Shown piece after piece: positions 9,191 to 33,230 of a stretch of 59,663 nucleotides of DNA (the first letter of the stretch is position 1; the number at the start of each line of letters is the position of its first letter). Source of the DNA: a virus (taxonomy: Duplodnaviria > Caudoviricetes); the IMG/VR virus record IMGVR_UViG_3300034356_001545, positions 1 through 59,663 of that record; one strand, given 5' to 3'. The position numbers and the translations under genes were made by a program. The notes under the pieces were generated by a model. It was not told where the DNA came from, made no database searches, and saw only the letters and a list, made by a program, of their open reading frames with translations.

Positions 9191-10168
9191 CTAGAATGCG
9201 TAGAAGGCTTTGAAGTTTAGAAGTACCGTCATATTCGCGCCAAACGTATTGGTGGCACGAAGCTGTAGCGTAGTAGAATTTATAAATGCGTTGAAGACAA
9301 AGGTTGCAGCGGTAGAGGTTCCGATTGACGTCTTGATAGAATCGACAATTGATGGAGCTGTTGCTAGGTTTGATGGGTTCCACACAATGTGTATCTCCCC
9401 TACGCGGACCGTAGTAGACCCTGAGTTGTAAATCATATAGTCAACAATAACAGCCCCTGCAAAAAGATTTGCCTCTAAGGTTGTTACCACACCATTGGTA
9501 ACTGCATTATTGATTACAGCGCTGTCGGAGCGGCTATAGAATGCACAAGTTCCAGATGACACCTCGCGTTGAACGAAGTCTAGACCTGTAAATGTAAACT
9601 GCTCAGCAGCTGATGAGTCGTTGTACGACAGCCCTGAAGCTCCTGCTGAAGTTCCTCCGTCGTTGTAAAGAATCTGTCCGTTAGACCCCGGTGATGCAGC
9701 GGTGATGTTGGCCGCCATATACTGGGTTAGATCCTCAAGGGTCACATACTTGTATACGGTAGCTGTTGCATCATAGATAAGGAAGGTGTCAGCAATGGCA
9801 ACGGTAGCCTCCGTAAGCTGCGACAAGGTCGTTGGCGCACTGATGGAGATTACATTACTTGCAATCGCAAGAGGAGCAACTGGAGTTAGGCTAGCCCCCG
9901 AGGTAAACGCTGCGGATCCAAGGTTACGCTTTATAACATTATTGCTAGCATCAAGGAAAAGGGCTTCTACCTCAGTAGACCCAGTACTTGGGGCAGAGGT
10001 GAAGGCAAGAGTTCCGTTTACCTCAACCTTTACCGTTGACAGTTTGAGGGCGGTATCGTTTCCTGCTCCGTCTTCAATTATTTTAGTCGTCGAGGTTGCT
10101 GTTCCGCTCTCCATCTTAAGGAGTGAACCGAATGCATCTTTTACGCGCTGACCACTAAGTGTTCCCAT
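9191..10168 (-). CDS. Virion/tail fibre-like protein
   Basis: T/A/S-rich, G.NGQI.YN..G fibre-type motif; start MGTLSG follows a promoter. Confidence 0.6.
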   Translation of the reverse strand: MGTLSGQRVKDAFGSLLKMESGTATSTTKIIEDGAGNDTALKLSTVKVEVNGTLAFTSAPSTGSTEVEALFLDASNNVIKRNLGSAAFTSGASLTPVAPLAIASNVISISAPTTLSQLTEATVAIADTFLIYDATATVYKYVTLEDLTQYMAANITAASPGSNGQILYNDGGTSAGASGLSYNDSSAAEQFTFTGLDFVQREVSSGTCAFYSRSDSAVINNAVTNGVVTTLEANLFAGAVIVDYMIYNSGSTTVRVGEIHIVWNPSNLATAPSIVDSIKTSIGTSTAATFVFNAFINSTTLQLRATNTFGANMTVLLNFKAFYAF

Positions 10169-10205
10169 ATTTCGTACTTTTGCTACAAAGATACAATTTA
10201 CTTCA

Positions 10206-10835
10206 TTGGCTAAAAAGTTCAAGAAAAAGGAAGACCTAAAGTTTAGGGACTTCGCCTACCGCGACGATCGTGGACCTACCCTATACAAATTTGTCTGGCA
10301 CGCCAACAAGTTTATGAAGCAGGAGTATAAGCTCCTGCCAATACAGGTGGACTTTCTCCTGTTCGCCTACGACCTAGAGTTTTTTACCATCGAGTGGATG
10401 GGACAACAGCTGTCGAAGTCCTACAACCAGACAAAAGACTGGCTTACTGTTAGGATGAAGAAGCGGGAATTGCTGTTCGACTACTTCTCGATGGAGGATA
10501 TCGACATCCACAAGGATACCTCTATGTGGTTTCGTGATGAGAACAGGTGGAACTACCGCAAAAGGTACTCACTAACCCAGCAGGGGCGTATGATTGTAGA
10601 AAGATGGAGGGATATAGCCTCCGGAAAGGAAACTGTGGAGCTTCAGTACGACAAAAAAACCATCAACAAGACTATCCCAAATCGGGGAGAGGGCATCCCT
10701 ACAGTTCTTTTGGGCAGAAAGCTAAAAGGCCACGAGGATACTCCCCTTGGCAAGAAGATTATCGCTCAGGCTAAGATTGATGGGCGGAGTATAGCCGGAA
10801 TTTTGCCTCCTTCGAAGCACCTTCGTGAGGGGTAA
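10206..10835 (+). CDS. Putative winged-helix DNA-binding regulator, antisense to the late block
   Basis: FLLFAYD...Y.LTQQGR MarR-like wing signature; TTG start; own promoter at 10175. Confidence 0.55.
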   Translation: MAKKFKKKEDLKFRDFAYRDDRGPTLYKFVWHANKFMKQEYKLLPIQVDFLLFAYDLEFFTIEWMGQQLSKSYNQTKDWLTVRMKKRELLFDYFSMEDIDIHKDTSMWFRDENRWNYRKRYSLTQQGRMIVERWRDIASGKETVELQYDKKTINKTIPNRGEGIPTVLLGRKLKGHEDTPLGKKIIAQAKIDGRSIAGILPPSKHLREG

Positions 10836-10944
10836 ACTTCCCGTCCTTGTCAGCCATCACATAGTAACGACCTTTCTCCATCATCCAGTGGTGGCCCTTT
10901 GGGGCTGCAACCATTACGTGGCTGTCTTTCTTCTTGGCCTTCAT
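10771..10944 (-). CDS. Small basic protein (MKAKKKDSHVMVAAPKGHHWMM..., 57 aa)
   Basis: Manual translation; start overlaps the lipoprotein stop; below the ORF-track cutoff. Confidence 0.65.
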   Translation of the reverse strand: MKAKKKDSHVMVAAPKGHHWMMEKGRYYVMADKDGKFTPHEGASKEAKFRLYSAHQS

Positions 10945-11639
10945 TATGGTTTTGCTTTTTTCTGTGCTTTCTTACTCATCTCCATAACGGGAACTGGTGT
11001 TCCCACCGGGTATGGCTTTCCTGCTATCGCTGCGGTGATTGACTTCATACCAGTCTTCACTTCGATAGCCCTACGCAGAGGAACAGCAGCCTCATTCATC
11101 GGTCCGTAGCATTTGGCAAGAACGATTCCTGTCTCAGTGGTATCGAAAACCTCACAGGGCATACAGAACATATTGCTCTCGCTAGTCACAGCGTAGTCTG
11201 TGTTAACGATAAACGAGCGGTTCTTTGGGTGCATCATCTCCCAATCCTGAGTCTTTGGATTGTACTGAGGGATAAAGCTAGAGGTATCGAAGTACCAGTA
11301 CAAAGACCACACTGACTTACCGTCCCATATTGTGCTCCCGTCGTTGTTCGGGTACTGAAAGTTTTTATCGGTGCTGAACTCAGAACCCCAGCTAAAGCTA
11401 TAGCCTTCCATAGCAAGGTTAGAGACTGAAGGCCCATCCAACACTGGGCAGATAGAACAGCCTTCTTCAAACACTTTTCCTTGCACTATAATTTGCTTTC
11501 CAGTAAGCTCGGCACCTGATGCCCCACAGAAGGCATAAAGGCCTTCGTGGATCTTAAGGGCCTTAGCGTCTTTTGATTCTTCGCTCGCGCAGCTTAGTAG
11601 TGCTGAAACAGCAAGTAGGGATAATAATGTATTTTTCAT
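10944..11639 (-). CDS. Cys-rich lipoprotein
   Basis: Signal peptide II (LLSC lipobox); CSIC and CMPC motifs. Confidence 0.7.
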   Translation of the reverse strand: MKNTLLSLLAVSALLSCASEESKDAKALKIHEGLYAFCGASGAELTGKQIIVQGKVFEEGCSICPVLDGPSVSNLAMEGYSFSWGSEFSTDKNFQYPNNDGSTIWDGKSVWSLYWYFDTSSFIPQYNPKTQDWEMMHPKNRSFIVNTDYAVTSESNMFCMPCEVFDTTETGIVLAKCYGPMNEAAVPLRRAIEVKTGMKSITAAIAGKPYPVGTPVPVMEMSKKAQKKAKP

Positions 11640-11652
11640 ATTGGGGGGTTGT

Positions 11653-11871
11653 TTACTTTTTAGATCTGTTCTTTACCGCTGATATAAACCTACGCTCGGT
11701 ATGGTCGTAGTCTAGACCATCTCCGTTTCCGTACTTTCCAGCTTGGCGATTCTTTTTGTTGAGCTCAGCCCGATACTTCTTACGCTCATCGGTGGAGTGA
11801 TACTCCGTATCGTACTCCTTCTTCTTTTGGTAAGCCTTAGGGTTGCTGTCGTAATACTTTTTAGTTTTCAC
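11653..11871 (-). CDS. Small basic protein, HNH-like remnant
   Basis: GDGLDYDH...S.VKNR resembles minimal HNH-like phage proteins. Confidence 0.55.
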   Translation of the reverse strand: MKTKKYYDSNPKAYQKKKEYDTEYHSTDERKKYRAELNKKNRQAGKYGNGDGLDYDHTERRFISAVKNRSKK

Positions 11872-12449
11872 TTCTCTAGCTCAAAAATTAGGTCGTCGCT
11901 TCTTAATTTGTTTTCTCGGAAGTCAAAGGTCCGATATTTTTCGTAACCAAATTTCTTTGCGTGAGACGCTAGTTCCTCAAACCACTCTACGCTTTGTACG
12001 TCTTCTATGATGAGCTTGCCTCCCTGCCTAACCTTCGGCATCCACAGCTCAATGGCTATCTTCATACTCTCTATGCTATGGGGGCCGTCGTCAATGATGT
12101 AGTCATAGCTGTTGTCTTTATGTTGATCTATAACAGATTTGTCATAACCGTCAGCAATGATGATCTCAATCCTCGGGAACTCACGACCAAGTGATGCTTC
12201 TTTATAGTTGTTTAAACACGCATCCATTATATCTATGCCAACAATCTTAGCATTTGTAAACCATTCGTGCCAGAGTATCAGGCTTCCGCCGTTCTGTACA
12301 CCAATTTCAAGTACTGACGTAACCCTCTCTGGGTTAGCAAACTCTTCAGTGTAGTATGCCTCTAGGTAGTCGTGGAACAAACCTTTATCCGTAGTAGGCC
12401 ATCCGTTGGAGTCTACACAGTATTCGCTGTAGATATCAATTAGGTTCAT
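11868..12449 (-). CDS. Class I SAM-dependent O-methyltransferase-like protein
   Basis: TDKG..HDY, VLEIGV.NGGS, IVGID, DYIIDDGPH, GG.LIIED. Confidence 0.85.
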   Translation of the reverse strand: MNLIDIYSEYCVDSNGWPTTDKGLFHDYLEAYYTEEFANPERVTSVLEIGVQNGGSLILWHEWFTNAKIVGIDIMDACLNNYKEASLGREFPRIEIIIADGYDKSVIDQHKDNSYDYIIDDGPHSIESMKIAIELWMPKVRQGGKLIIEDVQSVEWFEELASHAKKFGYEKYRTFDFRENKLRSDDLIFELEK

Positions 12450-12470
12450 AAGCAGTTTTGCTTACAATAT

Positions 12471-12653
12471 CTAGTCCTCGTCCTCTTCGTAGAAGCAGGC
12501 CTTGAACTTGTAGCTGCTAGGAGTCTTGCCTGAGGCTTTGACAGCAGCTTCAAGCTGCTTCATCCCAGATGCCATATCCATTGACTTGATCTCAATCTCC
12601 TCGCCGGACTCATCACTCATCCTACCGCCGTAGTTGTACTTCTTGGCCTTCAT
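12471..12653 (-). CDS. Small protein with KKYNYGG motif
   Basis: ORF in operon. Confidence 0.6.
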   Translation of the reverse strand: MKAKKYNYGGRMSDESGEEIEIKSMDMASGMKQLEAAVKASGKTPSSYKFKACFYEEDED

Positions 12654-12659
12654 AGCTGT

Positions 12660-13256
12660 TTACTTTTTCTTTAGCATCTTAAAGTCAATGGCGGAAATCT
12701 TTCCGTCCTTGTTCTTGTCAATCTTTACTTGGCCTCCCATAAGGTACTTCTTCATCTTGCCTCCCATACCGTAATCCATTTTACCTCCGCCGGCCATCTT
12801 CTTGACAGGAGCGGATTCTTTGGCCTTTATTACACGGTTCTCTACGCGAGCTGCTTTCCCAAGAAGTCGGTCAGCCTTACGCTCCCTACCCTCGTCTACA
12901 GCTTTGCTGCCACGTGCTACAAGGTTGGCTTCACGATTCTCAAGTCTTTTGACTTTGTTTCCTACCTTTCCGCCATTAAGGTACATATCCATCTTACCGC
13001 CGCCCATCATCTTCTTGACGGCTGCGGCAGCGGGCTTAGCGGCTGGCTTCTTTTTTACCATAAAGCCTTGCTCCTTGAGTCCACGATCAAACGCAGCCAG
13101 TGCATCGGGGTCATTCTTACGGATGGTGTTGCGCTCCTGGGTTAACATATCCATACGGTTTGCCTTGGCAATCTCCATATCGGTCATCTTCTTCTTGGGG
13201 TCTGGAACGATTGGCGTCTTGCCACCATTCTTGTAAACAGTCATCTTAGCTTTCAT
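12660..13256 (-). CDS. Basic protein with repeated (Y/M)xxGG motifs and C-terminal DxNxDG EF-hand-like loop
   Basis: YKNGG, MMGGG, YLNGG, MAGGG, YGMGG, YLMGG; DKNKDGKISAID; start follows promoter at 13262. Confidence 0.7.
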   Translation of the reverse strand: MKAKMTVYKNGGKTPIVPDPKKKMTDMEIAKANRMDMLTQERNTIRKNDPDALAAFDRGLKEQGFMVKKKPAAKPAAAAVKKMMGGGKMDMYLNGGKVGNKVKRLENREANLVARGSKAVDEGRERKADRLLGKAARVENRVIKAKESAPVKKMAGGGKMDYGMGGKMKKYLMGGQVKIDKNKDGKISAIDFKMLKKK

Positions 13257-13269
13257 AGGTACAAAGATA

Positions 13270-13734
13270 TTATTTAAACGGCTTGTATTTTGTCTTGGTG
13301 CCCTCCTTATAAGCCACAAGTATCTGCTTCCTGTTCTCCCCCTTGCGGTATCCCACGTGAACCCAGTCAGGGTTCTTAGTGGTGCCAAACTCGTAGATGA
13401 GCTGATCGAACTCTAAGTTGTCCTTGATAAACTCAAACACCTCCATATTAGTAACCCCATTACCCCTACCATCTTGGTCTAGGTCAAGAGCACGACCAAG
13501 ATTATGGTCCGAGTTCTTACTGCCCCCTATGGCCTTATTTAAGGCAGCAGATCTGTAGCCCGATGAGATGTAGATAGGAACACCGAAGTGCTCACGGATC
13601 TTATCAAAGACTTCAGTACAGATTGTCTTGAGGTTCTCTAGATGCTCTGGGGTGGGCTCGTTGCTGATGCCTCGCCGCGTAGCGGTGTCACTCTTAGTGA
13701 CCTCAGCTAGCGATACGTAGTTACTTAGTTTCAT
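13270..13734 (-). CDS. Peptidase M15 family endolysin
   Basis: SSGYRS..LN..IGGS..SDH..G.ALD ... WVHV. Confidence 0.88.
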   Translation of the reverse strand: MKLSNYVSLAEVTKSDTATRRGISNEPTPEHLENLKTICTEVFDKIREHFGVPIYISSGYRSAALNKAIGGSKNSDHNLGRALDLDQDGRGNGVTNMEVFEFIKDNLEFDQLIYEFGTTKNPDWVHVGYRKGENRKQILVAYKEGTKTKYKPFK

Positions 13735-13784
13735 AAACAAACTTGTTTTGCGTTGTTAATCATAAGACAAAGATAACAACAATA

Positions 13785-13803
13785 AAAAAGGGCCCGAAGG
13801 CCC
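13785..13803 (-). terminator. Intrinsic terminator
   Basis: GGGCC-TTCG-GGCCC hairpin followed by T-run on minus strand. Confidence 0.8.
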
Positions 13804-13850
13804 TAATCGCAGAATCTGTCGTCACAACACAAAACCACTATGCAAATTTA
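13785..13850 (-). ncRNA. Candidate antisense sRNA to the GIY-YIG nuclease leader
   Basis: TAAATTTG promoter at 13850-13843; 13-nt perfect complement to 14370-14382; terminator. Confidence 0.6.
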
Positions 13851-14362
13851 GGGTTTTCCATCCTAAGTAAAAAATTCGCTGGCAACATAACCCACCTCTT
13901 GTATATCGATAGACCTTTACTGTTGCTGACCTTAGTAGCAGTGCTATATCTTACGTGCTTATCGTAACCCTTACTCCTCCCATTTCGGTTTACCCATTTA
14001 AGGAATGTTGATTGATGTACACCAACAGCTAAAGAGGCTGAAAATGAAGATAGGTAAATCAATTTTGTTTCAATGTCAACATATATGTGAGACACCCCTC
14101 CGTTACCACCACCAGATATGTTGTAGCAGTTCTCTATCCTATACGCAGATATCCACAGGTTCTCAAGATCATTTAGCTGTTGCATTGTTTCTGCCCAGCA
14201 AATCACCTCCGTATGAAAGTTCTCCTTACCGTACACCTCAAATGCATCAACAAGGACCTTTCCAGACCCCTTGTATGACTTACTAAACCTAGAAGACCTA
14301 TGTTGTCCTATGTATATCCAGTTGTTTAACTTGTTGGTTGTCTTGTAGATGTATCCTATCAT
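13838..14362 (-). CDS. GIY-YIG homing endonuclease
   Basis: GYIYKTTN..N.WIYIGQH, Y.GSG, LE...I, YN; start MIGYIY. Confidence 0.9.
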   Translation of the reverse strand: MIGYIYKTTNKLNNWIYIGQHRSSRFSKSYKGSGKVLVDAFEVYGKENFHTEVICWAETMQQLNDLENLWISAYRIENCYNISGGGNGGVSHIYVDIETKLIYLSSFSASLAVGVHQSTFLKWVNRNGRSKGYDKHVRYSTATKVSNSKGLSIYKRWVMLPANFLLRMENPKFA

Positions 14363-14386
14363 AGCTGTATTTGTGTTGTGACAAGG

Positions 14387-14433
14387 CAAATATACGTAAT
14401 ATTTGGTGGTTTGGAAAATATTATGTACCTTCG
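14387..14433. promoter_or_regulatory. Divergent Bacteroidota-type promoters
   Basis: TATATTTG on minus (14394-14387); TTTG...TACCTTCG on plus (14402-14433). Confidence 0.65.
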
Positions 14434-14435
14434 CG

Positions 14436-14695
14436 TTAGACTAAGGTCTAGAGCACTAAAGAAACTAAGGTAAAGCGATCTAAAAGACAATCGCTTTAGC
14501 CAACAAGAGACAGGGTGTCGTCGCCTAAGCAGAGACACCCCACGTTCATCAGTGATAAGACGCTCAGCCACTAATGAATACGCGACAACTATAGTCTATT
14601 CGTTTTACCGCTATTATAGCTGTTGTTTACTCGTTTTCGCATATATAAAGCTAACAAGTAGGAGGTATACGGGTCCTTAGGGACCCTCCACCTCC
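14436..14695 (+). ncRNA. Candidate structured non-coding RNA
   Basis: Promoter followed by at least 5 inverted-repeat stems and no ORF of 60 aa or more on plus. Confidence 0.45.
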
Positions 14696-14800
14696 CAGCC
14701 CCCAATCATTTAACAGCTATTAAGACTCCTACTGTAGTCAATGTATAGGTTTACTTATGCAGCTTCTTCCTCAACCTAAGGGTTGACGTCAGAAGCATTA

Positions 14801-14890
14801 GAGTTAGAAATAATTATCTGGAGTGGGTAATTTATCTAGAATTAGATATAATTATCTGGGGTTAGATATAATTATCTAGGGGATAATATA
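14801..14890. repeat. About four tandem 20-bp iteron-like repeats (TTAGATATAATTATCT(G/A)G)
   Basis: Direct reading; each unit contains an AGATA-N4-TATCT inverted repeat or a degenerate version. Confidence 0.8.
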
Positions 14891-15221
14891 CATATATACA
14901 CGTACGCACGCGCAAACGGAAACGCAATCCCAGAGGTATGGCCCTCGCGCGCGCTGATTCCTATTGCAGGCTTTTGGCGTTTTGGTAGGTCGGCTATGGT
15001 GAGCGGCTATGGCGTTTGGTTGGTAGGTTTGGTGAGGAGTTCCGAAGCGAGGAACAATAGCCCTCCCTAACTATGCCCTAACTACTCCCTTACCCTCCCA
15101 CTACTCCCCACTTACCCCCACAAGGCTATGGGTTATGCATCTACGCTAACCCTCTGACTAAAACTTTTGTCGGTGATTATCAGCAAGTTACGGGTGGATT
15201 AGAAAAACTTTCACCTAAAAA

Positions 15222-15255
15222 CTTGCATATGTCAAAAGTCGTTATCACCTTTACA
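15222..15255 (+). promoter_or_regulatory. Early promoter (CTTGCATAT...TTATCACCTTTACA)
   Basis: Near-identical copy at 16895-16928 and related copy at 17815-17847. Confidence 0.7.
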
Positions 15256-15281
15256 CCATCAATCATTTAATCTACCATCCT

Positions 15282-15521
15282 ATGAGCAACGAAATCAAAT
15301 CAACCAAACTTCGTGCGGGTCGTTACCAAGTAAGCATCAAGGGTTTTCAGCCCTTTATAGTTCAAGAACGATTGAACAATAATTGTATGCCAACGGGAGA
15401 GTGGAATATGTTTGCTCCCGATGGAGAGTGGATGGACACGCTCCCTACAAAATCTACTTGTTTATGGATGTTGGGTGAAATGCACAAGGAGGGAAGATTG
15501 AATGAATACCGATTATCTTAA
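15282..15521 (+). CDS. Early hypothetical protein
   Basis: First ORF after early promoter. Confidence 0.7.
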   Translation: MSNEIKSTKLRAGRYQVSIKGFQPFIVQERLNNNCMPTGEWNMFAPDGEWMDTLPTKSTCLWMLGEMHKEGRLNEYRLS

Positions 15522-15526
15522 ATCAA

Positions 15527-15579
15527 GGTTAACTGAAGATGAGTTCAATACTCGAAACCTACTTCGGTAGGTCTTAACC
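15527..15579 (+). ncRNA. Type I hammerhead ribozyme (HHR1)
   Basis: GGTTAA-CTGAAGA-T-GAGT(TCAAT)ACTC-GAAA-CCTAC(TTCG)GTAGG-TC-TTAACC. Confidence 0.88.
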
Positions 15580-15595
15580 AAAAAAAACAATTGTT

Positions 15596-15958
15596 ATGAA
15601 AACTTACTTCCTCGTAGAAAAAAACATTGACAACCACAAAATGTCAATCATTTCTGATGCCACACTTAAGGACTTCATCAAGAAGAATTGCTATCGTGAA
15701 GAGTACCTTGACCAAAGCATTAAGGGCGTGCTGAATTCAATGAAGAGTGCAAAGGCAGTTTACTATGACCAAAGCGACTTTGTGTCAATTAGCAAATATT
15801 ACGTGTGCAAGTCAGTCGACCAAGCAAAGGCAGTAAAGCGCATCGAACTTCGTTTAATGATTGAGTGCCTTGAGGAGAGTTTTTGCTCCATTGATGAGAT
15901 GTTCCCGAAATCAGAGGCCGTAGTAAGGCATAGTACATTGTTAATTTATGAAGACTAA
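15596..15958 (+). CDS. Early hypothetical protein
   Basis: ORF starting 17 nt after HHR1. Confidence 0.7.
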   Translation: MKTYFLVEKNIDNHKMSIISDATLKDFIKKNCYREEYLDQSIKGVLNSMKSAKAVYYDQSDFVSISKYYVCKSVDQAKAVKRIELRLMIECLEESFCSIDEMFPKSEAVVRHSTLLIYED

Positions 15959-15972
15959 TTACAATATTAATA

Positions 15973-16022
15973 GGTTAACCGACGAGGCTTCAGTAGCCGA
16001 AACGCCTAAGGGCGTCTTAACC
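15973..16022 (+). ncRNA. Type I hammerhead ribozyme (HHR2, U4C core variant)
   Basis: GGTTAA-CCGACGA-GGCT(TCAGT)AGCC-GAAA-CGCC(TAAG)GGCG-TC-TTAACC. Confidence 0.82.
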
Positions 16023-16037
16023 AAAAAACAATTGACT

Positions 16038-16211
16038 ATGAACCATACATTTTTTTCAAGGACAGCCAACAAGGGAGTAACTGCCGAGGTAACGTTTGAC
16101 GTTGTATCTGACAAGGCTCCAAGCGAGACTGCGTTCTCAAAGGAACTTGGCGACCTGCTTGCTCAAGGCAAGATTATAGCCTACGGCTACACTACTCTAC
16201 AGCCTTACTAA
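16038..16211 (+). CDS. Early hypothetical protein (57 aa)
   Basis: Start reassigned to the ATG after HHR2, giving the same architecture as HHR1. Confidence 0.6.
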   Translation: MNHTFFSRTANKGVTAEVTFDVVSDKAPSETAFSKELGDLLAQGKIIAYGYTTLQPY

Positions 16212-16231
16212 CCAATAAAAAGATAGAAATT

Positions 16232-16420
16232 ATGAAAACTGAATTAAACAATATGGTACGAGCATACGCCGAGTACCTAAATGCTGTTGGAGACTTCGTC
16301 AATGCAACTGATGACCAAACGCGAAACAAATTAATTGCCTTCGACATCATTGAGATGCTATCCGTTGACCTCGGTGAGCAGATACAGGAAGCCCACAAAG
16401 TACTAACCGAAAATAAATAG
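16232..16420 (+). CDS. Early hypothetical protein
   Basis: A-rich leader TAGAAATTATG. Confidence 0.7.
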   Translation: MKTELNNMVRAYAEYLNAVGDFVNATDDQTRNKLIAFDIIEMLSVDLGEQIQEAHKVLTENK

Positions 16421-16425
16421 AAACT

Positions 16426-16647
16426 ATGGAAACGATAAATGACCTCCGCGTGTGGACATACTTTGACGGAACCGAAGAGGACGTAAACGACTTCGTCCGT
16501 GAGTGGGAGACCTTGTTAGGTACTAACGTAACGGCAGACCTGACAATAGATAGTGACGGAGGATACTCTTGGTACTGCGAAGCGTTCGTTAGTCAAGCAC
16601 AAATCGATGAGTTCAATATGGACGAAGATTGGTTCACGATTCAATAA
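16426..16647 (+). CDS. Early acidic hypothetical protein
   Basis: Leader TAGAAACTATG. Confidence 0.7.
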   Translation: METINDLRVWTYFDGTEEDVNDFVREWETLLGTNVTADLTIDSDGGYSWYCEAFVSQAQIDEFNMDEDWFTIQ

Positions 16648-16667
16648 CAAATAAACAATTAGAAACT

Positions 16668-16874
16668 ATGACAATTAGCCAGATCAAAAAACTAACAGCA
16701 GAAACTGCGCCCTACTACTTTTCGAGGGACACAATGCGATTCTTTAAACAAAGGATGAGCGACTTCAGCGTTAGCAAGTGCGAGGATGGTAGGTACCTAA
16801 TCCAAGCACCATCAAAATACGGAACGTCCGTCAGGTACTTTAATCCAAGTAATAACGAGTTGGAAATTAAATAA
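16668..16874 (+). CDS. Early hypothetical protein (YYFSRDTMRFF motif)
   Basis: Leader AATAAACAATTAGAAACTATG. Confidence 0.7.
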   Translation: MTISQIKKLTAETAPYYFSRDTMRFFKQRMSDFSVSKCEDGRYLIQAPSKYGTSVRYFNPSNNELEIK

Positions 16875-16953
16875 CAAATTGTTAATAACTTTCTCTTGCA
16901 TATTCCAAAATCCATTATCACCTTTACATAACCAATCAAGTAAAACAATTAAT

Positions 16954-17166
16954 ATGAACAACGAAACATCATCAATCGACAACATCATCGCCTACGAACA
17001 AGGCGAACTAAACGACCAAGAAGTCGTGTGCCTCTTCGCTGACCTTGTCAAAAGCGGTATGGCCTGGAGCCTTCAGGGCTCCTACGGCCGAACCGCGACT
17101 GCCCTAATCAAAGAGGGGTGGATAGACCGCGAGGGTAACGTCACCCTTGCTGTTTTAGAACTTTAA
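16954..17166 (+). CDS. Early hypothetical protein (AWSLQGSYGR motif)
   Basis: Follows promoter 16895-16928. Confidence 0.7.
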   Translation: MNNETSSIDNIIAYEQGELNDQEVVCLFADLVKSGMAWSLQGSYGRTATALIKEGWIDREGNVTLAVLEL

Positions 17167-17211
17167 TAAACAAATCGTAAAATAAAATCAACCAATAAAC
17201 AATTAGAAACT

Positions 17212-17808
17212 ATGGCTAATAACTGCTACAATTGGGTAATCATTCGCGGAGAGAAAGATATCCTTGACCTACTGCAAACCAAGTTCGAAACCTACCATTC
17301 TCACGAAGGCACATTCAGCGATTGGTGCGACACATTCTTCACCGACAAGCGTGAGAAGAAAAATGATGTGTTCGAGGAAATCTATGACTACGGAACTAAA
17401 TGGTTTGACTTTGAAGTAGAGCGTCGTCAAGACGATGACCTACTGATTAGCGGAGATTCTGCTTGGTCACCACCACAAGGATTCCTGCGCCGTTTGTCAG
17501 AAGAATATGCTGTTCTTATTCGCGGAGAGTACGAAGAATCAGGTAGTGACTTTGGCGGATATGCTGACTACGAGAAAGGTGTGATGGATGACAAATGCTT
17601 CACATATAGTGAGTGGATGTACATCAACAACGAGGAGAATTTCTTTTACCGACTTGAAGATGAAGTAGAATACTACGATACGTTTGATGACTATAAATCG
17701 GCCGTGCTTGATGGCTTTGAAAACGAACTGACCGAACAGCAAATTGCTGAAGTGCGCGAGGAATTTGAGCGCCAGCAAGATGTTTACAGAAATAGAATTA
17801 ACGCCTAA
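17212..17808 (+). CDS. YubB/DUF1281-like ferredoxin-fold protein
   Basis: MANNCYN.V.I.G, YGTKW, SAWSPP, YEE.G.DF.G. Confidence 0.7.
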   Translation: MANNCYNWVIIRGEKDILDLLQTKFETYHSHEGTFSDWCDTFFTDKREKKNDVFEEIYDYGTKWFDFEVERRQDDDLLISGDSAWSPPQGFLRRLSEEYAVLIRGEYEESGSDFGGYADYEKGVMDDKCFTYSEWMYINNEENFFYRLEDEVEYYDTFDDYKSAVLDGFENELTEQQIAEVREEFERQQDVYRNRINA

Positions 17809-25329: not shown

Positions 25330-25776
25330 ATGAACGACTCAGCTATAAAGATTCTAAAAACAGCAAATGCTGTTAGGGATTTATTGTTAGAAAAAAATAA
25401 AGCATATGGGGACTCAGCACTTGAGCCTTCCAATATCTTTGCAAAGGGTTCCGCTGTAGAGAACATCTGCTGTCGTATTGACGACAAGCTGATGCGAATC
25501 AAAAACAAAGGGATCAACGACTCCACGGAGGATACTATTCAGGACCTAATAGGTTATTTAATTTTACTTAAAATTGCAGTTGAAGATGAGCGTACTAGAA
25601 CAATCAATAACCATATTTCCGAGTATTCTACACACGGAGAAACCTTCGTACATAACGATATCCGCCGCACTCCAAAGAATCTCGACTGGTGGGAAACATC
25701 TACCTCTAGTTCAGCAAGTCAGAGAAGGCCAAAAAGAAGCGAAGAAGAAGCTTCCGGTGATCCTATGGGCGGGTGA
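25330..25776 (+). CDS. Nucleotide-modification-associated domain 1 (DUF1599-like) protein
   Basis: KN.AYGDS...RIDDKL.RI...EDTIQDLIGY. Confidence 0.8.
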   Translation: MNDSAIKILKTANAVRDLLLEKNKAYGDSALEPSNIFAKGSAVENICCRIDDKLMRIKNKGINDSTEDTIQDLIGYLILLKIAVEDERTRTINNHISEYSTHGETFVHNDIRRTPKNLDWWETSTSSSASQRRPKRSEEEASGDPMGG

Positions 25777-27412
25777 GTTTGACTCACGCCGCGACGAATC
25801 AATACGACAGCACAGCGGACTGATAGTCCTTGACTTCGACCACCTAGACGTGGAAGGAAGCAAAGACATTTTATCCACAGATCCATATGTATTCGCCTGC
25901 TGGATATCTCCATCCGGCGAAGGGCTCAAGGCACTGGTCAACGTATCGAATCCAAGCCTACATAGAGACCATTTCCGAGCACTTCAGGCATACTTTGATG
26001 CTGAGTATGGTCTAGAGGTAGACCCCTCTGGAATCAACGAATCTCGCGCCTGCTTTGACAGCTACGACCCAGAGATTGTAGTCAACGAAGGCTCCAAGAT
26101 ATTCGGGCAGATGATGTCCGAGAAGTCTATAGCTCAGAAGGTACAGCCGAAGGACCACTACACCGACTACAATAAGTTGGCGGTGGTGTCATCTATGATA
26201 CGCCGAGCAGAGGATGGAGAGAAGCACGCGATACTTCTCAAGGCAGCGATCCTATGTGGCGGCTATATTGCTGTTGGACGTATGGAAGAGGACGAGGCAT
26301 ACCACGTACTCGAGAGGGAGATCCTTAGGCGCGATGTGGACTCCATAGAGACCGCACGCAACACAATCAAGGACGGCATAGAGAAGGGCAAGACGATGCC
26401 CATCCGTGAGGTACTAGAGGAGGAGAACTCCGCCAAGCTGGAGATGATGATCAACGACGGGGATATGTCGTTCATATCCTCCGACGATGAAGACTACCGA
26501 TGGATTCAGGACTACATAGAGGGCAAGATACAGCTAGGCCTTACCACTGGGTGCAAGGACTTTGACAAGCACTTCCTGATCAAGAGAGACCTAACCGTAA
26601 TCAACGGAATATCAAACATTGGTAAGTCTACGTTCTCTCTATATATGATTGTATCTACTGCAGTTAACCACAACTGGAGGTGGATTATATACTCATCAGA
26701 GAACCGCACCGCTGCAGTTAAGATGAAGCTCATACAGTTTGCTGCAAATATGCAGGTCAAGGAGATGAATGGATACGACCTTAAGAGGTCGTACCAATGG
26801 GTCAATGACCACTTCACGATAATCAGTAACAAGAGCATCTACTCCTACAGCGACCTGCTGGTGTTCGGAGAGAAGCTAATACGCCAGGGAGACTACGATG
26901 GCTACTTCATTGATCCGTACAACAGCCTAAAGATTCAGATGTCTTCTGGCTCTTCGCTCACCACCCACGACTACCACTACGAGGCTGCCTCTGAGTTCCT
27001 TTCGTTTACCCAGTCCCACAATATGGGCCTATGGCTGTCTACCCACGCCATCACCGAAGCGCAGAGGCGTAAGGGAGAGGACGGACTACCGAAGGCTCCC
27101 TATGCTGAGGACACCGAAGGTGGAGGTAAATTCGTAAATAAGTCTGATAATTTCTTGACATTCCACAGGAAAATTCAGCACCCAGAGTACGATATGAGGC
27201 GTACCGTTGAGGTACACGTAAGAAAGATTAGGGAGGTAGAGTCCGGTGGGGAACCCACAAGCCTCGACTATCCTGTTCTGTTTGAGATGAATGGGCTAAG
27301 CTCTGGCTTCGTAAACAAGTTTACAGGAAAGCCATTGTTTAAGTCTATACTTGCCGATGTACCTCCACCAAAGATTAACTTCGAAGGTGTTGTGTATGAA
27401 GATGCTTTCTAG
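25586..27412 (+). CDS. Primase-helicase (VirE/BT4734-like N-terminal domain plus SF4 helicase)
   Basis: K..LP...F..R....HSG.IVLDFDH, SPSGEGLK, R.C..SYDP; GISNIGKS, SSEN, IDPYN. Confidence 0.85.
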   Translation: MSVLEQSITIFPSILHTEKPSYITISAALQRISTGGKHLPLVQQVREGQKEAKKKLPVILWAGEFDSRRDESIRQHSGLIVLDFDHLDVEGSKDILSTDPYVFACWISPSGEGLKALVNVSNPSLHRDHFRALQAYFDAEYGLEVDPSGINESRACFDSYDPEIVVNEGSKIFGQMMSEKSIAQKVQPKDHYTDYNKLAVVSSMIRRAEDGEKHAILLKAAILCGGYIAVGRMEEDEAYHVLEREILRRDVDSIETARNTIKDGIEKGKTMPIREVLEEENSAKLEMMINDGDMSFISSDDEDYRWIQDYIEGKIQLGLTTGCKDFDKHFLIKRDLTVINGISNIGKSTFSLYMIVSTAVNHNWRWIIYSSENRTAAVKMKLIQFAANMQVKEMNGYDLKRSYQWVNDHFTIISNKSIYSYSDLLVFGEKLIRQGDYDGYFIDPYNSLKIQMSSGSSLTTHDYHYEAASEFLSFTQSHNMGLWLSTHAITEAQRRKGEDGLPKAPYAEDTEGGGKFVNKSDNFLTFHRKIQHPEYDMRRTVEVHVRKIREVESGGEPTSLDYPVLFEMNGLSSGFVNKFTGKPLFKSILADVPPPKINFEGVVYEDAF

Positions 27413-30470: not shown

Positions 30471-30779
30471 ATGAACAACAATACAATCGCATCTATTATT
30501 TTTTACGAGATAAGAAACGAGTATGGCCTCAGCATTTCTCATATACGTAACAAGACTCGTATATCCTATGTGCGTGAGGCACGCCAGGTGTTTACTCAGC
30601 TTATGCGAGAGCACTCATCAATGACCACCACGGAGATTGGTAGGCTAGTAAACAGAGACCACTCTACGGTGGTCGCCACTACAAAGGCGGTAGGTCGTGA
30701 ACTAGATACAAACAAAGTATATCGAAATCGTTATAGTAAGATGAAGTTTAACATAGAATCAAAAATCAACAATGTCTAA
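30471..30779 (+). CDS. DnaA C-terminal (domain IV)-like HTH protein
   Basis: R......ARQ....L.RE...T.EIG....RDHSTV. Confidence 0.8.
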   Translation: MNNNTIASIIFYEIRNEYGLSISHIRNKTRISYVREARQVFTQLMREHSSMTTTEIGRLVNRDHSTVVATTKAVGRELDTNKVYRNRYSKMKFNIESKINNV

Positions 30780-32550
30780 GAATTTTGCAGAGAGCCTAGG
30801 GTGGGAAGTCGGAGTTGACTTCCCCGAGTGGGGAAACACAGAGGAGTACGTGAAGACCATATCGCGTGGCTACCTCATCAATGACGAGAAGCCTAAGGAT
30901 GCGTACCTACGGGTCGCTAAGGCGGCGGCACACCGCCTAAATCGACCCGAGCTTGCCAGCAAGTTCTACGGCTACATATGGAACAACTGGCTTGGCCTTG
31001 CCACACCAGTGCTTGCCAATATGGGAACAGATCGTGGGCTTCCGATCTCCTGCTTCGGCGTTGACATTGGCGACAGCATCCACGACATCGGGATGAAGAA
31101 CCTCGAGACTATGCTGCTGGCCAAGCACGGCGGTGGTGTAGGCATCGGACTCAATATGCTACGTCCCGCAGGGTCACCTATATCCAACAGCAATGGGACA
31201 ACCGATGGTGTGGTCCCCTTCTGTAAGATATACGACTCAACGATACTCGCCACCTCACAGGGCAACGTGCGCAGAGGTGCTGCATCGGTGAACCTAAGCA
31301 TAGAGCACGGAGACTTTTGGGAGTGGATTGAAATCCGCGAACCAAAGGGAGACGTCAACCGTCAGTGTCTCAACCTAAACCAGTCGGTCATTGTATCCGA
31401 TAAGTTTATGCGGAAGCTAGAGGACGGCGACGATGAGTCACGCCGTCGCTGGTCTAAGGTGCTGCAGAAGCGCAAGGCCACAGGCCAGCCGTACATTATG
31501 TACCGCGGCAACGTCAACAAGCAGAACCCAGAGATGTACAAGCACAACGGGCTGAAGGTCTTTATGACTAACATCTGCTCCGAGATTACCCTTTACACCG
31601 ACGAGTCCCACAGCTTTGTTTGCTGTTTATCCTCACTGAATCTTGCCAAGTATGACGAGTGGAAGGACACAGACGTTGTATACTACTCCACGTTCTTTTT
31701 GGACGGTGTGTTGGAGGAGTTCATCCAGAAAGCCAAGAATATGAGGGGCTTCGAAAATTCGGTTCGTTCTGCTGAAAAGGGACGGGCACTTGGACTGGGC
31801 GTACTCGGATGGCACACCTACCTACAGCAACGTGGAGCCCCATTTGAGGGGCTACAGGCGCAGATTGAGACGCGCCGTATCTTCTCCCACATCAAGATGG
31901 AATCAGAGCGTGCTAGCCGCGATATGGCTAAGATGTTCGGAGAGCCTCTATGGTGCCGTGGCTTTGGTGTTCGCAACACCCACCTACGCGCTATAGCGCC
32001 TACGGTGTCCAACTCCAAGCTCAGTGGTAACGTGAGTGCAGGCATCGAGCCTTGGGCCGCTAACGTATTCACCGAGCAGTCTGCCAAGGGTACTTTCATA
32101 CGCAAGAACCCAACCTTAGAGCGGGTTCTGCGTAAGATAGGAATCAACAACAAAGAGACCTGGGATCAGATACTCGCCGACGAAGGATCCGTTCAGAACA
32201 TAGGCGAGCTTGATGGTTGGATTTACCAGAAGGGTAAGCTGATGCAAAGCAATGAGGCTGACCCTATGATGGATGTAGTTCTAGTAAAGGAGGTCTACAA
32301 GACCTTTAAGGAAATCAATCAGCTAGACCTAATCTACCAAGCGGGAATCCGACAGCAGTACATAGACCAGTCTGTGTCATTGAACCTTGCGTTCCCTACT
32401 GAGGCTACACCTAAGTGGATCAATCAAGTACATATGGAGGCTTGGAACCAAGGAATAAAGACGCTGTACTATATGCGAACAGAGTCTGTGCTTCGTGGTG
32501 ATATAGCCGTAAAGGCTATGAGCCCCGACTGTCTTTCCTGCGATGGGTAG
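30772..32550 (+). CDS. nrdA: Ribonucleotide reductase class I alpha subunit, no ATP cone
   Basis: PISCF, GGGVG, RRGA, TNICSEI, AIAPT, KTLYY, C-terminal CLSC. Confidence 0.95.
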   Translation: MSKNFAESLGWEVGVDFPEWGNTEEYVKTISRGYLINDEKPKDAYLRVAKAAAHRLNRPELASKFYGYIWNNWLGLATPVLANMGTDRGLPISCFGVDIGDSIHDIGMKNLETMLLAKHGGGVGIGLNMLRPAGSPISNSNGTTDGVVPFCKIYDSTILATSQGNVRRGAASVNLSIEHGDFWEWIEIREPKGDVNRQCLNLNQSVIVSDKFMRKLEDGDDESRRRWSKVLQKRKATGQPYIMYRGNVNKQNPEMYKHNGLKVFMTNICSEITLYTDESHSFVCCLSSLNLAKYDEWKDTDVVYYSTFFLDGVLEEFIQKAKNMRGFENSVRSAEKGRALGLGVLGWHTYLQQRGAPFEGLQAQIETRRIFSHIKMESERASRDMAKMFGEPLWCRGFGVRNTHLRAIAPTVSNSKLSGNVSAGIEPWAANVFTEQSAKGTFIRKNPTLERVLRKIGINNKETWDQILADEGSVQNIGELDGWIYQKGKLMQSNEADPMMDVVLVKEVYKTFKEINQLDLIYQAGIRQQYIDQSVSLNLAFPTEATPKWINQVHMEAWNQGIKTLYYMRTESVLRGDIAVKAMSPDCLSCDG

Positions 32551-32817: not shown

Positions 32818-33230
32818 TATCTGAATCGGTATAAAAACATCATAACGACAAGTGCTGCCGCTAAGAACAAAAGTAGGTAATCTTTTACCTTGCCCGTTTT
32901 GCTTTCCGGCTGAACTAATTGCGGTGGACACTCAGCTTGGACGCTTACCGCGTAGGGAACTTCCTTTACCAATGTTTTCACTATCATCTTGTCTTGGTAC
33001 TTCGTGATGACAATTTTGACGGTGTCGTTTTCAATCACCGCAGAGTCGCCATTATCTAGAACAGCAACTGTGTCAACTAGATACACTGGTGGGGTGATGA
33101 TGGTATCCCAGACCGTAATGGTGACTGGCTTCAGTATTGAAGGGTCCTTCTTTACTGCTTTGTTGAGATGATAGGTGGCGCTGCATCCTGTAAGAAGTGC
33201 AGCGACCACTAGGGTTGATAGGTATTTCAT
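32817..33230 (-). CDS. Putative unimolecular spanin
   Basis: Lipobox LLTGC, beta-rich middle region, C-terminal TM helix. Confidence 0.6.
   Translation of the reverse strand: MKYLSTLVVAALLTGCSATYHLNKAVKKDPSILKPVTITVWDTIITPPVYLVDTVAVLDNGDSAVIENDTVKIVITKYQDKMIVKTLVKEVPYAVSVQAECPPQLVQPESKTGKVKDYLLLFLAAALVVMMFLYRFR

Follow-up and report, generated by a model that had tools for sequence, protein, structure and literature searches.

HHR2, the second of two hammerhead motifs in the window (the whole stretch of viral DNA analyzed, 59,663 nt), is almost certainly a genuine, selected element of the hammerhead family. Judging from sequence, it is quite probably a functional member of a family of phage type I hammerheads that fill the spacers between small genes and cut the polycistronic transcript. 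It probably still cleaves in vivo, with C in place of U at core position 4, and on balance its main role would be intercistronic mRNA processing, tied to translation or stability.

Set against the hammerhead core consensus C3 U4 G5 A6 N7 G8 A9/G12 A13 A14/A15.1-U16.1/H17, HHR2 departs at position 4 only (Table 1). A second hammerhead with a U4C core had been proposed for this place by the sequence-only reading, and it is borne out by the sequence itself and by the family covariance model (CM; R1), which was trained on 24 sequences, all from contigs other than the window, with the window's own sequences left out, and which scores HHR2 at 72.7 bits (E=4e-15). The MFE and centroid folds both give the three-way junction, with and without flanks, helix I being open and helices II and III loop-closed, which is type I topology; the leader is unpaired in the MFE fold. 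To go by its sequence, HHR2 is thus a hammerhead core variant, kept among the hammerheads despite C4 because one survey, in the part consulted, describes U4C as an active variant that occurs naturally (PMC3088659). HHR1 scores 59.7 bits with the same model (E=5e-12), the third-best match in the window reaching 10.6 bits, and 19 of the 150 family members in the alignment have a base inserted where HHR1 has its extra U. Our own descriptor, run over 59,663 bp on both strands, recognized two hammerheads only, HHR1 and HHR2, both in intergenic spacers and in the same sense as the genes. The string AAACAATTG likewise occurs in the window only at these two places, a count that is weak alone, as at least two matches were seen in 21 of 100 shuffles.

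Table 1. Hammerhead elements, leaders and neighboring open reading frames in the window (basis given where recorded).
Feature	Position	Strand	Description	Basis
79-aa ORF	15282-15521	+	upstream of HHR1; stop codon 5 nt before ribozyme	
HHR1	15527-15579	+	type I hammerhead, predicted cut 15573/15574	sequence, descriptor, fold, CM
HHR1 core		+	canonical CTGAAGA (CUGAAGA) with a single U inserted between A9 and G10.1	sequence
HHR1 stems		+	stem I as HHR2; stem II GAGT/ACTC, loop TCAAT; stem III CCTAC/GTAGG	
HHR1 leader	15580-15595	+	16 nt, A8 CAATTG TT, then ATG at 15596	
120-aa ORF	15596-15958	+	between HHR1 and HHR2	
HHR2	15973-16022	+	type I hammerhead, U4C core	sequence, family CM, MFE fold
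HHR2 stem I	15973-78 with 16017-22	+	GGTTAA with TTAACC	sequence
HHR2 core C3-A9	15979-85	+	CCGACGA, C at position 4 = 15980	sequence
HHR2 stem II	15986-89 with 15995-98	+	GGCT with AGCC, 4 bp; loop UCAGU 15990-94	
HHR2 G12-A14	15999-16001	+	within GAAA 15999-16002	
HHR2 stem III	16002-06 with 16011-15	+	5 bp (CGCC/GGCG inside), loop UAAG	
HHR2 C17	16016	+	GUC cleavage site; predicted cut 16016/16017	
HHR2 leader	16023-16037	+	15 nt, A6 CAATTG ACT, A-rich, G-poor; AUUGA at 16031-35	
57-aa ORF	16038-16211	+	downstream of HHR2; start picked by family spacing rule	

The 79-aa ORF opens a rightward gene block, following a non-coding region of about 880 nt. The 120-aa ORF has orthologs in two related loci, L123 and L124, at 85-86% identity, and these are likewise flanked by hammerheads. 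The frame of the 57-aa ORF is open back to an in-frame ATG at 15948, translation from which would read through HHR2; in another relative, L070, leader and ORF start are identical to those of the 57-aa ORF. Searches of Pfam and PHROGs returned no match for the 120-aa and 57-aa proteins, and for the 79-aa protein only a weak match to phrog_2287 (function unknown); blastn of 15000-17000 against GenBank phages returned none. A scan of 14300-17300 for sigma-70 promoters and terminators gave counts close to shuffle expectation, with nothing interpretable between the ribozymes. A search for RNA data over this region listed no RNA run; the one run listed, probably of DNA, contained a single 242-nt contig located at 15243-15484, away from both ribozymes.

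By their sequence, HHR1 and HHR2 are members of a large, near-uniform family of phage hammerheads, hundreds in number, defined by an A-GGUUAA/UUAACC-A stem I, a stem II of 4 bp that carries G10.1-C11.1, a 5-nt U-N-A-R-U loop, a variable stem III, and an ATG 13-18 nt after stem I, on the same strand as the flanking genes. HHR2 has all of these traits, including the UCAGU loop and the 15-nt leader. With nothing but stem I and the core fixed, a pattern search recovers at least 120 IMG/VR stretches, with 155 matches in those 120 loci. Among 134 unique matches, both free inserts form hairpins of at least 3 bp in 115, compared to a mean of 1.3 and a maximum of 5 for shuffled inserts; this is the test independent of model fitting. 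In the alignment of 150 copies, which is fitted to the model, 99.6% of cells pair, versus 79.3% when shuffled and at most 43.7% when slid, with 390 cells altered on both sides and compensatory change in 10 of the 15 pairs. The earlier observation that HHR1 and HHR2 share stem I and differ in stems II and III with pairing preserved holds up, and it extends across more than 100 relatives.

When stem I is left free in the descriptor, its sequence is still the same in 159 of 176 copies, and the As that flank it are near-invariant (A-1 in 149 and A+1 in 148 of 150 aligned copies). Loop II has 5 nt in 126 of 145 copies, with the consensus U-N-A-R-U whatever the leader. The conserved loop and the flanking As suggest a tertiary contact of loop II with the stem I region, of the sort on which fast natural hammerheads depend for rapid cleavage at physiological Mg2+; a covarying tertiary pair for loop II, sought by mutual information within the family, was not identified. 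Mutual information of loop II, N7, U4 or the inserted base with the flanks gave weak signals only, all ascribed to relatedness, the best one (z=7.8) lying between the stem II closing base and leader position +6. As to the genomic context, 109 of 145 unique copies have, 13-18 nt after stem I, an ATG that opens an ORF of 30 codons or more, versus 3.8% of random same-strand positions. The leaders are A-rich and G-poor, and copies never occur on both strands within one locus. Successive cleavage sites are separated by a median of 458 nt (72 gaps; 443 nt in the window), and a single copy is found in 63 of 104 locus-strands, the loci being partial.

At the Rfam gathering threshold the window has no matches, and seven family loci have no hammerhead matches; neither HHR1 nor HHR2 reaches the gathering score of any of the hammerhead families RF00163, RF00008, RF02275-7 and RF03152, and in E-value mode nothing is reported on HHR1 and a weak RAGATH-1 match on HHR2. 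Family members score 22.7 against a gathering score of 34 with Hammerhead_1 and 26.5 against 48.5 with Hammerhead_3, and also fall below the gathering score of RAGATH-1. These thresholds thus miss the family, and many phage genomes therefore probably carry such ribozymes without annotation. Below threshold, HHR2 scores best with the RAGATH-1-hammerhead (RF03152), with which it has in common a short A/U-rich open stem I, a short stem II and a GUC site, the RAGATH-1 core being CUGAUGA; however, the conserved upstream hairpin of RAGATH-1 has no convincing counterpart in HHR2, and at 19.9 bits versus a gathering score of 56.3, membership was rejected. Our literature search did not find the GGUUAA-stem-I family described, and PMC3088659 may contain it in its Figures S6/S7 or in its supplementary alignments; the search likewise found no hammerheads in crAss-like/Flavobacteria phages and no U4C in phage hammerheads.

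With the family at hand, the idea that an AT-rich spacer came to resemble a hammerhead by chance, for which the shortness of the motif and the silence of Rfam at the gathering score could be invoked, has a negligible probability: the E-value of HHR2 comes from an independent family model, the covariation is massive, and the only two matches in the window both fall in same-sense intergenic spacers. A more serious alternative is that HHR2 is catalytically crippled or dead: U4C would leave no useful cleavage, and what persists would be only a spacer with a structure, a module for recombination or a mutant too recent to have been purged. U4 is indeed the rule (147 of 155 family matches, about 95%), and the copies in L123, L124 and L070 that are orthologous to HHR2 by position also have U4, so the C4 of the window could be a recent, mildly deleterious change. 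In the consulted part of Perreault et al. (2011), core mutations are said generally to cost activity drastically, and U4C "considerably decreases activity in vitro" (PMC3088659). Lingering dead copies, however, predict other inactivating changes in the core, and the family shows no core deviation other than U4C (8 of 150 aligned copies). The complete scans of IMG/VR recovered 28 stretches with C4 and not one in which position 4 was A or G or in which G5, A6 or G8 had changed; with positions 4-9 left free, UGANGA is present in 107 and CGANGA in five of 112 unique copies. On the strength of these counts U4C looks tolerated rather than dead. They also constitute evidence from natural variation on which core change a full-length hammerhead bears. 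The C4 copies (the 28 stretches plus three from genome-contig loci) reduce to 23 unique sequences, spread over some 10 or more different stem and gene contexts; they have perfect stems and normal ATG spacing, and retain an intact 4-bp stem II in 21 of the 23. In one U4C lineage (L007, L015, L027, L045, L181, L187 and others), C4 has persisted while stems II and III underwent compensatory change, and the core and stem II together, CCGACGA GGCUUCAGUAGCC, are preserved but joined to a different stem III in each of the window, L110 and L184. An apparent link of U4C to G at loop position 4, seen in six of the first eight copies, failed as a rule over the 23 unique ones. A precedent is the natural viroid U4C hammerhead, reported to be less active in vitro and yet sufficient in vivo (Ambros and Flores, 1998, as cited in PMC3088659). 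Overall, a dead HHR2 seems unlikely, and U4C would rather make a slower but working ribozyme.

The sequence-only reading went further and had loop II pair with AUUGA (AUUG after HHR1), two nt before the start codon, a pseudoknot that would aid folding and hide the initiation region until cleavage. The elements on which this was built are in place: downstream of each ribozyme come an A-run, the string CAATTG, 2-3 nt and then the ATG (15596 and 16038), and complementarity is present in both, with 5 bp including one G-U in HHR2 and 4 bp in HHR1. Watson-Crick tertiary loop-loop pairs are, moreover, known in other hammerheads (PMC3088659, consulted in part), and some pairing by eye can be proposed in relatives: the L070 ortholog, with loop UUAGU and an identical leader, would form five pairs if two G-U are allowed, and a loop UGAUAUU in L123, judged from the alignment, four pairs with two G-U. 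However, AUUGA pairs with any U-(C/U)-A-(A/G)-U loop, that is, with 45 of 126 five-nt loops, and the U-N-A-R-U loop is conserved independently of the leader. Among 113 copies with a 5-nt loop, pairing is what a permutation of loops among leaders predicts: at least 4 bp in 33 copies versus 31.9 permuted, at least 5 bp in 12 versus 18.0, with a mean longest pairing of 3.19 versus 3.18, and the outcome is the same with only the last 10 nt before the ATG. In the HHR1 orthologs of L123 and L124, CAATTG has become CAATCG (AUUG to AUCG), uncompensated, with the loop UCAAU kept. L010 retains U4C and the loop UCAGU with a leader reading ...CAATTAAT (3 bp), L110 has the same core and loop as HHR2 with an unrelated leader (2 bp), and the UCAGU copies of L082 and L113 also reach 2 bp only; UCAAU copies are found with 16 other leaders at 2-3 bp. 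Mutual information between loop and leader in a fixed register does not exceed the weak values expected from relatedness. With complementarity at chance level and broken in relatives without compensation, the pseudoknot is not supported by these comparisons, and it appears very improbable. A circular RNA is a somewhat different proposal, compatible with transcript processing: HHR1 and HHR2 would excise the RNA between the two predicted cleavage sites (15574-16016), for which the length of 443 nt given earlier is correct, and UUAACC/GGUUAA pairing would allow circularization by the hammerhead or by RtcB. End complementarity exists by construction, and stem I being the same in 159 of 176 copies would provide compatible ends for any excised cistron; tertiary contacts are reported to enhance hammerhead ligation (PMC6155905, in the part consulted). 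In the centroid fold of 15574-16016, positions 2-6 are paired with the GGUUA on the 3' side, stems II and III are kept, and, because stem I is re-formed in this model, circularization appears sterically plausible. The MFE fold of the excised RNA, on the other hand, lacks the re-formed stem I, and its stability is close to that of shuffles (z=0.24). The many single-copy locus-strands, partial as the loci are, also weigh against circularization, as a lone copy cannot excise, and so does the fact that circularization needs no stem I identity between unrelated phages, making it rather improbable.

The preferred reading, processing of a polycistronic transcript, would operate as follows. The modules occupy spacers between small genes transcribed in the same direction, and cleavage after C17 would divide the transcript some 21-22 nt ahead of every start codon, leaving a 5' UTR standardized at about 22 nt. 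Hammerhead cleavage after H17 gives a 2',3'-cyclic phosphate and a 5'-OH, and the downstream cistron would then begin with 5'-OH UUAACC followed by an unstructured A-rich leader of about 16 nt, mostly without a Shine-Dalgarno sequence. The purpose may be to uncouple and standardize translation and/or stability for each cistron, in the manner of a natural "insulator." The motif, the family, its covariation, the fixed start-codon spacing, the strand consistency and the selective core pattern are seen directly in the sequences; cleavage in vivo, its purpose and a slower but working U4C ribozyme are inferred. A similar proposal exists for clustered prophage hammerheads flanking genes, which would process long phage transcripts (PMC3088659, consulted in part).

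As to the further suggestion that ribozyme, leader and small ORF form a shuffled cassette coupling cleavage to translation, the recurring unit stands, given the start-codon spacing described above, and the shuffling has partial support from mosaic junctions that lie within the ribozyme; what speaks for the link to translation is the spacing. One example of such a recombination junction among the relatives is provided by L070: on the level of translated sequence it is 100% identical to the window up to 15118, unrelated from there as far as 15985, and, starting at the 3' strand of stem I, near-identical again. A broader, speculative and on present evidence unlikely version would see in the ribozyme a portable "expression cassette border," combining a 5'-OH UUAACC leader for Shine-Dalgarno-independent initiation, microhomology swapping, self-circularizable cistrons and U4C as a selected "slow" allele. 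If so, a standard leader of about 22 nt would be needed for efficient initiation of each small gene, the conserved 5' and 3' halves would be the microhomology at which phages exchange gene cassettes and ribozyme bodies, the shared stem I would let any excised cistron re-form the active site and ligate or circularize, and the "slow" allele would tune the ratio of processed to unprocessed mRNA.

In comparison with known systems, the type I hammerheads of phages and prophages are, in the consulted parts of two reports (PMC3088659; PMC6155905), the closest: they have the same core and three-way junction, the same context of close-set copies flanking small ORFs of unknown function, and the same proposed role in converting long phage transcripts into gene-length mRNAs. 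The GGUUAA family differs from these in its near-invariant 6-bp stem I with flanking As and without an internal loop, in the U-N-A-R-U loop II, in the fixed 13-18 nt to the start codon, and in its sub-gathering Rfam scores. The viroid U4C hammerhead (via PMC3088659, consulted in part) has the same core substitution, but in a replicating viroid RNA, whereas HHR2 is DNA-encoded, type I and part of a phage operon, with U4C in 28 IMG/VR stretches. Another parallel is presented by type I hammerheads that RNA mycoviruses and plant viruses have in their 5' and intergenic UTRs, for which a role in translation initiation has been proposed: as described in the consulted part of PMC13725137, they too fill a small UTR, cut a few nt before the ORF, precede most ORFs and are assigned a role in expression rather than replication. 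They differ, according to the same source, in their eukaryotic hosts, RNA genomes, cap-independent/IRES-like role, unusual stem II lengths and a reported lack of loop-loop contacts, the host of the GGUUAA family being a bacterium and the genome DNA. The function of bacterial and phage hammerheads is described as an open question (PMC6155905, PMC6765202, both consulted in part). For the family described here, the fixed start-codon distance, the invariant stem I and the single tolerated core substitution translate into clean, testable predictions. RiboJ is an engineered ribozyme insulator whose self-cleavage standardizes the 5' UTR of a cistron, and the "mobile regulatory cassettes" of T4-type phages, promoters and terminator-like stem-loops, are short conserved intergenic modules at the borders of shuffled cassettes. 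The HHR2 family resembles both by analogy only, the T4 cassettes not being ribozymes.

HHR2, which with HHR1 makes up the only hammerhead matches in the window (descriptor scan, both strands), is, judged against its relatives, a genuine hammerhead with a natural variant of the core, C instead of U at position 4 (15980; U4C). A three-way junction is both the minimum free energy (MFE) and the centroid fold of either motif, with or without flanks, and the leaders, the stretches between stem I and the ATG, are unpaired in the predicted folds (ViennaRNA). Rfam at gathering score calls neither motif, and in E-value mode RAGATH-1-hammerhead alone matches HHR2, at 19.9 bits versus a gathering score of 56.3. 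Canonical members of the family, that is, phage hammerheads with the stem I GGUUAA/UUAACC, also score under the Rfam thresholds (Hammerhead_1, 22.7 vs. 34; Hammerhead_3, 26.5 vs. 48.5; RAGATH-1, 26.1 vs. 56.3).

Features of the window (double slash, predicted cleavage site)
Feature	Position	Strand	Description
Non-coding region, ~880 nt	14390-15281		between leftward and rightward gene blocks
HHR1	15527-15579	+	GGUUAA / CUGAAGA + U / GAGU-UCAAU-ACUC / GAAA / CCUAC-UUCG-GUAGG / UC // UUAACC
HHR2	15973-16022	+	GGUUAA / CCGACGA / GGCU-UCAGU-AGCC / GAAA / CGCC-UAAG-GGCG / UC // UUAACC
BT4734-like primase/DnaB helicase + ribonucleotide reductase	25574-27412 and 30772-32550	+	Pfam
2662-aa ORF	33227-41215	-	without Pfam match
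1719-aa protein	43504-48663	-	crAss muzzle-protein C-terminal domain (Pfam)

Support comes from a pattern fixing stem I and the core only (GGTTAAC-YGANGA-N8-30-GAAAC-N8-30-GTCTTAACC), which matches at least 120 IMG/VR stretches; the 120 loci analysed among the matches listed contain 155 matches, of which 134 are unique in sequence. As both inserts are unconstrained, their pairing is an unbiased test, and both fold into hairpins of 3 bp or more in 115 of the 134 unique matches (shuffled inserts: mean 1.3, maximum 5, 200 shuffles), with all four Watson-Crick pair types seen at variable stem positions. HHR2 reaches 72.7 bits (E=4e-15) and HHR1 59.7 bits with a covariance model trained on 24 sequences, all from contigs other than the window; the next-best window match has 10.6 bits, and the model matches 158 copies in 99 sources. 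In 150 aligned copies paired cells make up 99.6% (79.3% shuffled, at most 43.7% slid), both sides are altered in 390 cells and compensatory change is seen in 10 of 15 pairs, this alignment being fitted to the model, so that the free-insert test is the cleaner evidence. The sequence-only reading, whose sequence-level statements all hold (AUUGA at 16031-35 and the interval of 443 nt, 15574-16016, among them), had proposed a second hammerhead with a U4C core, borne out by the model score and the predicted junction, and covarying stems II and III, which the insert pairing and the compensatory changes support.

The pattern occurs in just 7 stretches among 185,579 species genomes, and the family is essentially viral; the source of three of the seven is Bacteroidota (a Paraflavitalea chromosome, Pedobacter and Puia MAG contigs), which suggests a Bacteroidota host. 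The only cellular-genome occurrences with a named Bacteroidota source are L131 (NZ_CP135920.1, Paraflavitalea speifideaquila chromosome), L126 and L130; the chromosomal copy may be a prophage, and L131 could provide a culturable system. A related viral contig, L060, carries a DUF805b RNA (RF02914; 250-282, minus strand; 38.9 bits, above gathering score) as well as four hammerheads.

As to the core change, C4 is present in 8 of 155 family matches (among the matches listed) and, when positions 4-9 are left free, in 5 of 112 unique copies, all 112 of which keep G5, A6, G8 and A9. Complete IMG/VR scans in the same frame return 28 stretches with C4, none in which position 4 is A or G, and none with a change at G5, A6 or G8. 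Three more copies come from genome-contig loci (L128-L130), bringing the U4C set to 23 unique sequences, in which stems II and III and the downstream gene are combined in about ten or more ways; stem II is intact at 4 bp in 21 of the 23, and the ATG lies at the usual distance in nearly all. One lineage (L007, L015, L027, L045, L181, L187, L188, L193, L194 and others) keeps C4 while stems II (GGCU/AGCC or GACU/AGUC) and III vary by compensation; L110 and L184 combine the exact 5' half of HHR2 (CCGACGA GGCUUCAGUAGCC) with different stems III, and L010 and L182 have this half with N7=U. Since persisting dead copies would show other inactivating changes, and none were found, we take U4C to be a tolerated and probably slower allele of the predicted ribozyme, in agreement with the statement in Perreault et al. 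(PMC3088659), in its passage on a viroid U4C variant, that much activity is lost in vitro while the variant works in vivo. Evidence to the contrary is that the positional orthologs of HHR2 in the relatives L123, L124 and L070 have U4, and thus C4 may be recent in the window lineage.

A pseudoknot between loop II and the leader had also been proposed. The pairs are present, UCAGU:AUUGA (5 bp including one G-U) in HHR2 and CAAU:AUUG (4 bp) in HHR1, but they are at the level of chance. In the 113 copies whose loop is 5 nt and whose leader is 10-25 nt, the longest loop-leader pairing averages 3.19 versus 3.18 with loops permuted; pairing of at least 4 bp is seen in 33 copies versus 31.9, and of at least 5 bp in 12 versus 18.0, the result being unchanged for the last 10 nt before the ATG. 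AUUGA fits any U-(C/U)-A-(A/G)-U loop (45 of 126 pentaloops), and other copies with the HHR1 or HHR2 loop sequences are missing the partner in the leader. The pairing is broken in the HHR1 orthologs of L123 and L124 (loop UCAAU kept, leader CAAUCG) and in L010, which keeps U4C and UCAGU and pairs over 3 bp with its leader CAAUUAAU. The pseudoknot is therefore not supported by these comparisons. Loop II is 5 nt in 126 of 145 copies (consensus U-N-A-R-U), and the base flanking stem I is A in 149 of 150 aligned copies on the 5' side and 148 of 150 on the 3' side. GGUUAA/UUAACC is present in 159 of 176 copies found with a stem-I-free descriptor, a share biased upward by preselection of the loci for at least one GGUUAA copy, the remainder including compensatory variants such as GAUUAA/UUAAUC (5 copies). 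From the conserved loop, and from a stem I that is invariant and bordered by A's, we infer that loop II probably contacts the end of helix I instead; no covarying pair for this contact was found in the family copies. Of the 134 unique matches, 115 have a 4-bp stem II, and 19 of 150 aligned copies share with HHR1 an additional base between A9 and G10.1. L132 (7735-7815) and L151 have a long stem II insertion (…GCTTGCCCGAAAGGGCTATAAATAATAGCC), an extended or branched helix II variant.

The position relative to genes is equally regular. The window is an entire 59,663-bp phage contig whose markers suggest a small-genome (59.7 kb) relative of the crAss phages. Its rightward block of small ORFs starts 3' of the long non-coding region, and HHR1 and HHR2 fill the spacers after ORFs 1 and 2. 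The non-coding region, conserved in L123, L124 and L070, may be an origin or promoter region. A ~16-nt repeat (TAGATATAATTATCT(G/A)G-like) is present there in triplicate around 14808-14880, and repeated 'CCC(T/A)' units lie in a C-rich tract around 15060-15130. After each ribozyme come an A-run, CAATTG, 2-3 nt and an ATG, and within the window AAACAATTG is confined to the two leaders. In the family, leaders are A-rich and G-poor, and 109 of 145 unique copies have, 13-18 nt past stem I, an ATG that opens an ORF of 30 codons or more (3.8% at random same-strand positions), substantiating the proposed recurring unit of ribozyme, leader and ORF. By this spacing the 57-aa ORF after HHR2 would start at 16038, not at the in-frame ATG at 15948, from which an 87-aa frame runs through all of HHR2; gene callers may choose the longer frame, hiding HHR2. 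In L042, an 82.7-kb contig with several copies, a longer conserved leader (~38-39 nt) has a hairpin-like element (…CAGCCGCAGACTATAACAGGCGCAC…), which may be a second structured element between ribozyme and ATG. The upstream ORF (at least 40 open codons, our criterion) mostly stops inside or just before the ribozyme (145 copies): at the TAA inside GGUUAA (45/145), at the UGA of CUGA (23/145) or within 0-6 nt (37/145). In many members (L001-L120) the upstream gene has no stop of its own and uses the TAA or UGA of the ribozyme, so that a terminating ribosome would sit on the ribozyme 5' half.

Among relatives, exchange is seen at the ribozyme. L070 matches window 9597-15118 at 99-100% identity (translated comparison), is without detectable similarity over 15118-15985, where it has other small genes and two other hammerheads, and becomes near-identical again at the 3' strand of stem I, a match that extends across the leader and the 57-aa ORF; at the HHR2 position it has a different ribozyme body (CUGAGGA-U-GGGUUUAGUACCC-GAAA-UGCCGUGAGGCA). 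In L123 and L124 the 120-aa ORF between the two hammerheads is retained at 85-86% identity, as are the ribozymes on either side of it, but the genes upstream differ; in L010 an HHR2-like ribozyme with its leader is flanked by two unrelated genes; and in L067, L077, L110, L184, L190 and L191 differing ribozyme bodies precede one common downstream gene. Leader identity over -13..-1 is 0.577 within and 0.432 between loci. Such exchange indicates that the ribozymes mark the borders of shuffled gene cassettes, and perhaps they promote the shuffling.

Most likely, intercistronic self-cleavage standardises the leaders, and would provide each small gene with a short 5'-OH leader. Successive predicted cleavage sites are a median of 458 nt apart (72 gaps), and no family locus has copies on both strands. 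That the 443-nt RNA released by cleavage at both window sites is circularised seems a poor bet. Its 5' UUAACC is the strand missing from the 3' ribozyme, and stem I is re-formed in its centroid fold, but not in its MFE fold; its stability is no greater than that of shuffles (z=0.24), and for clustered phage hammerheads an unsuccessful search for circular or spliced products is reported by Perreault et al. (PMC3088659).

As far as our searches go, supplementary files aside, the literature holds no description of an invariant stem I, fixed start-codon spacing, invisibility at Rfam thresholds and a single tolerated core change for this sub-family. The context itself, hammerheads flanking small phage ORFs, has been known since 2011, as sections of two papers state (PMC3088659; PMC6155905), and HHR2, by its sequence features, belongs to a uniform phage sub-family of that known kind.
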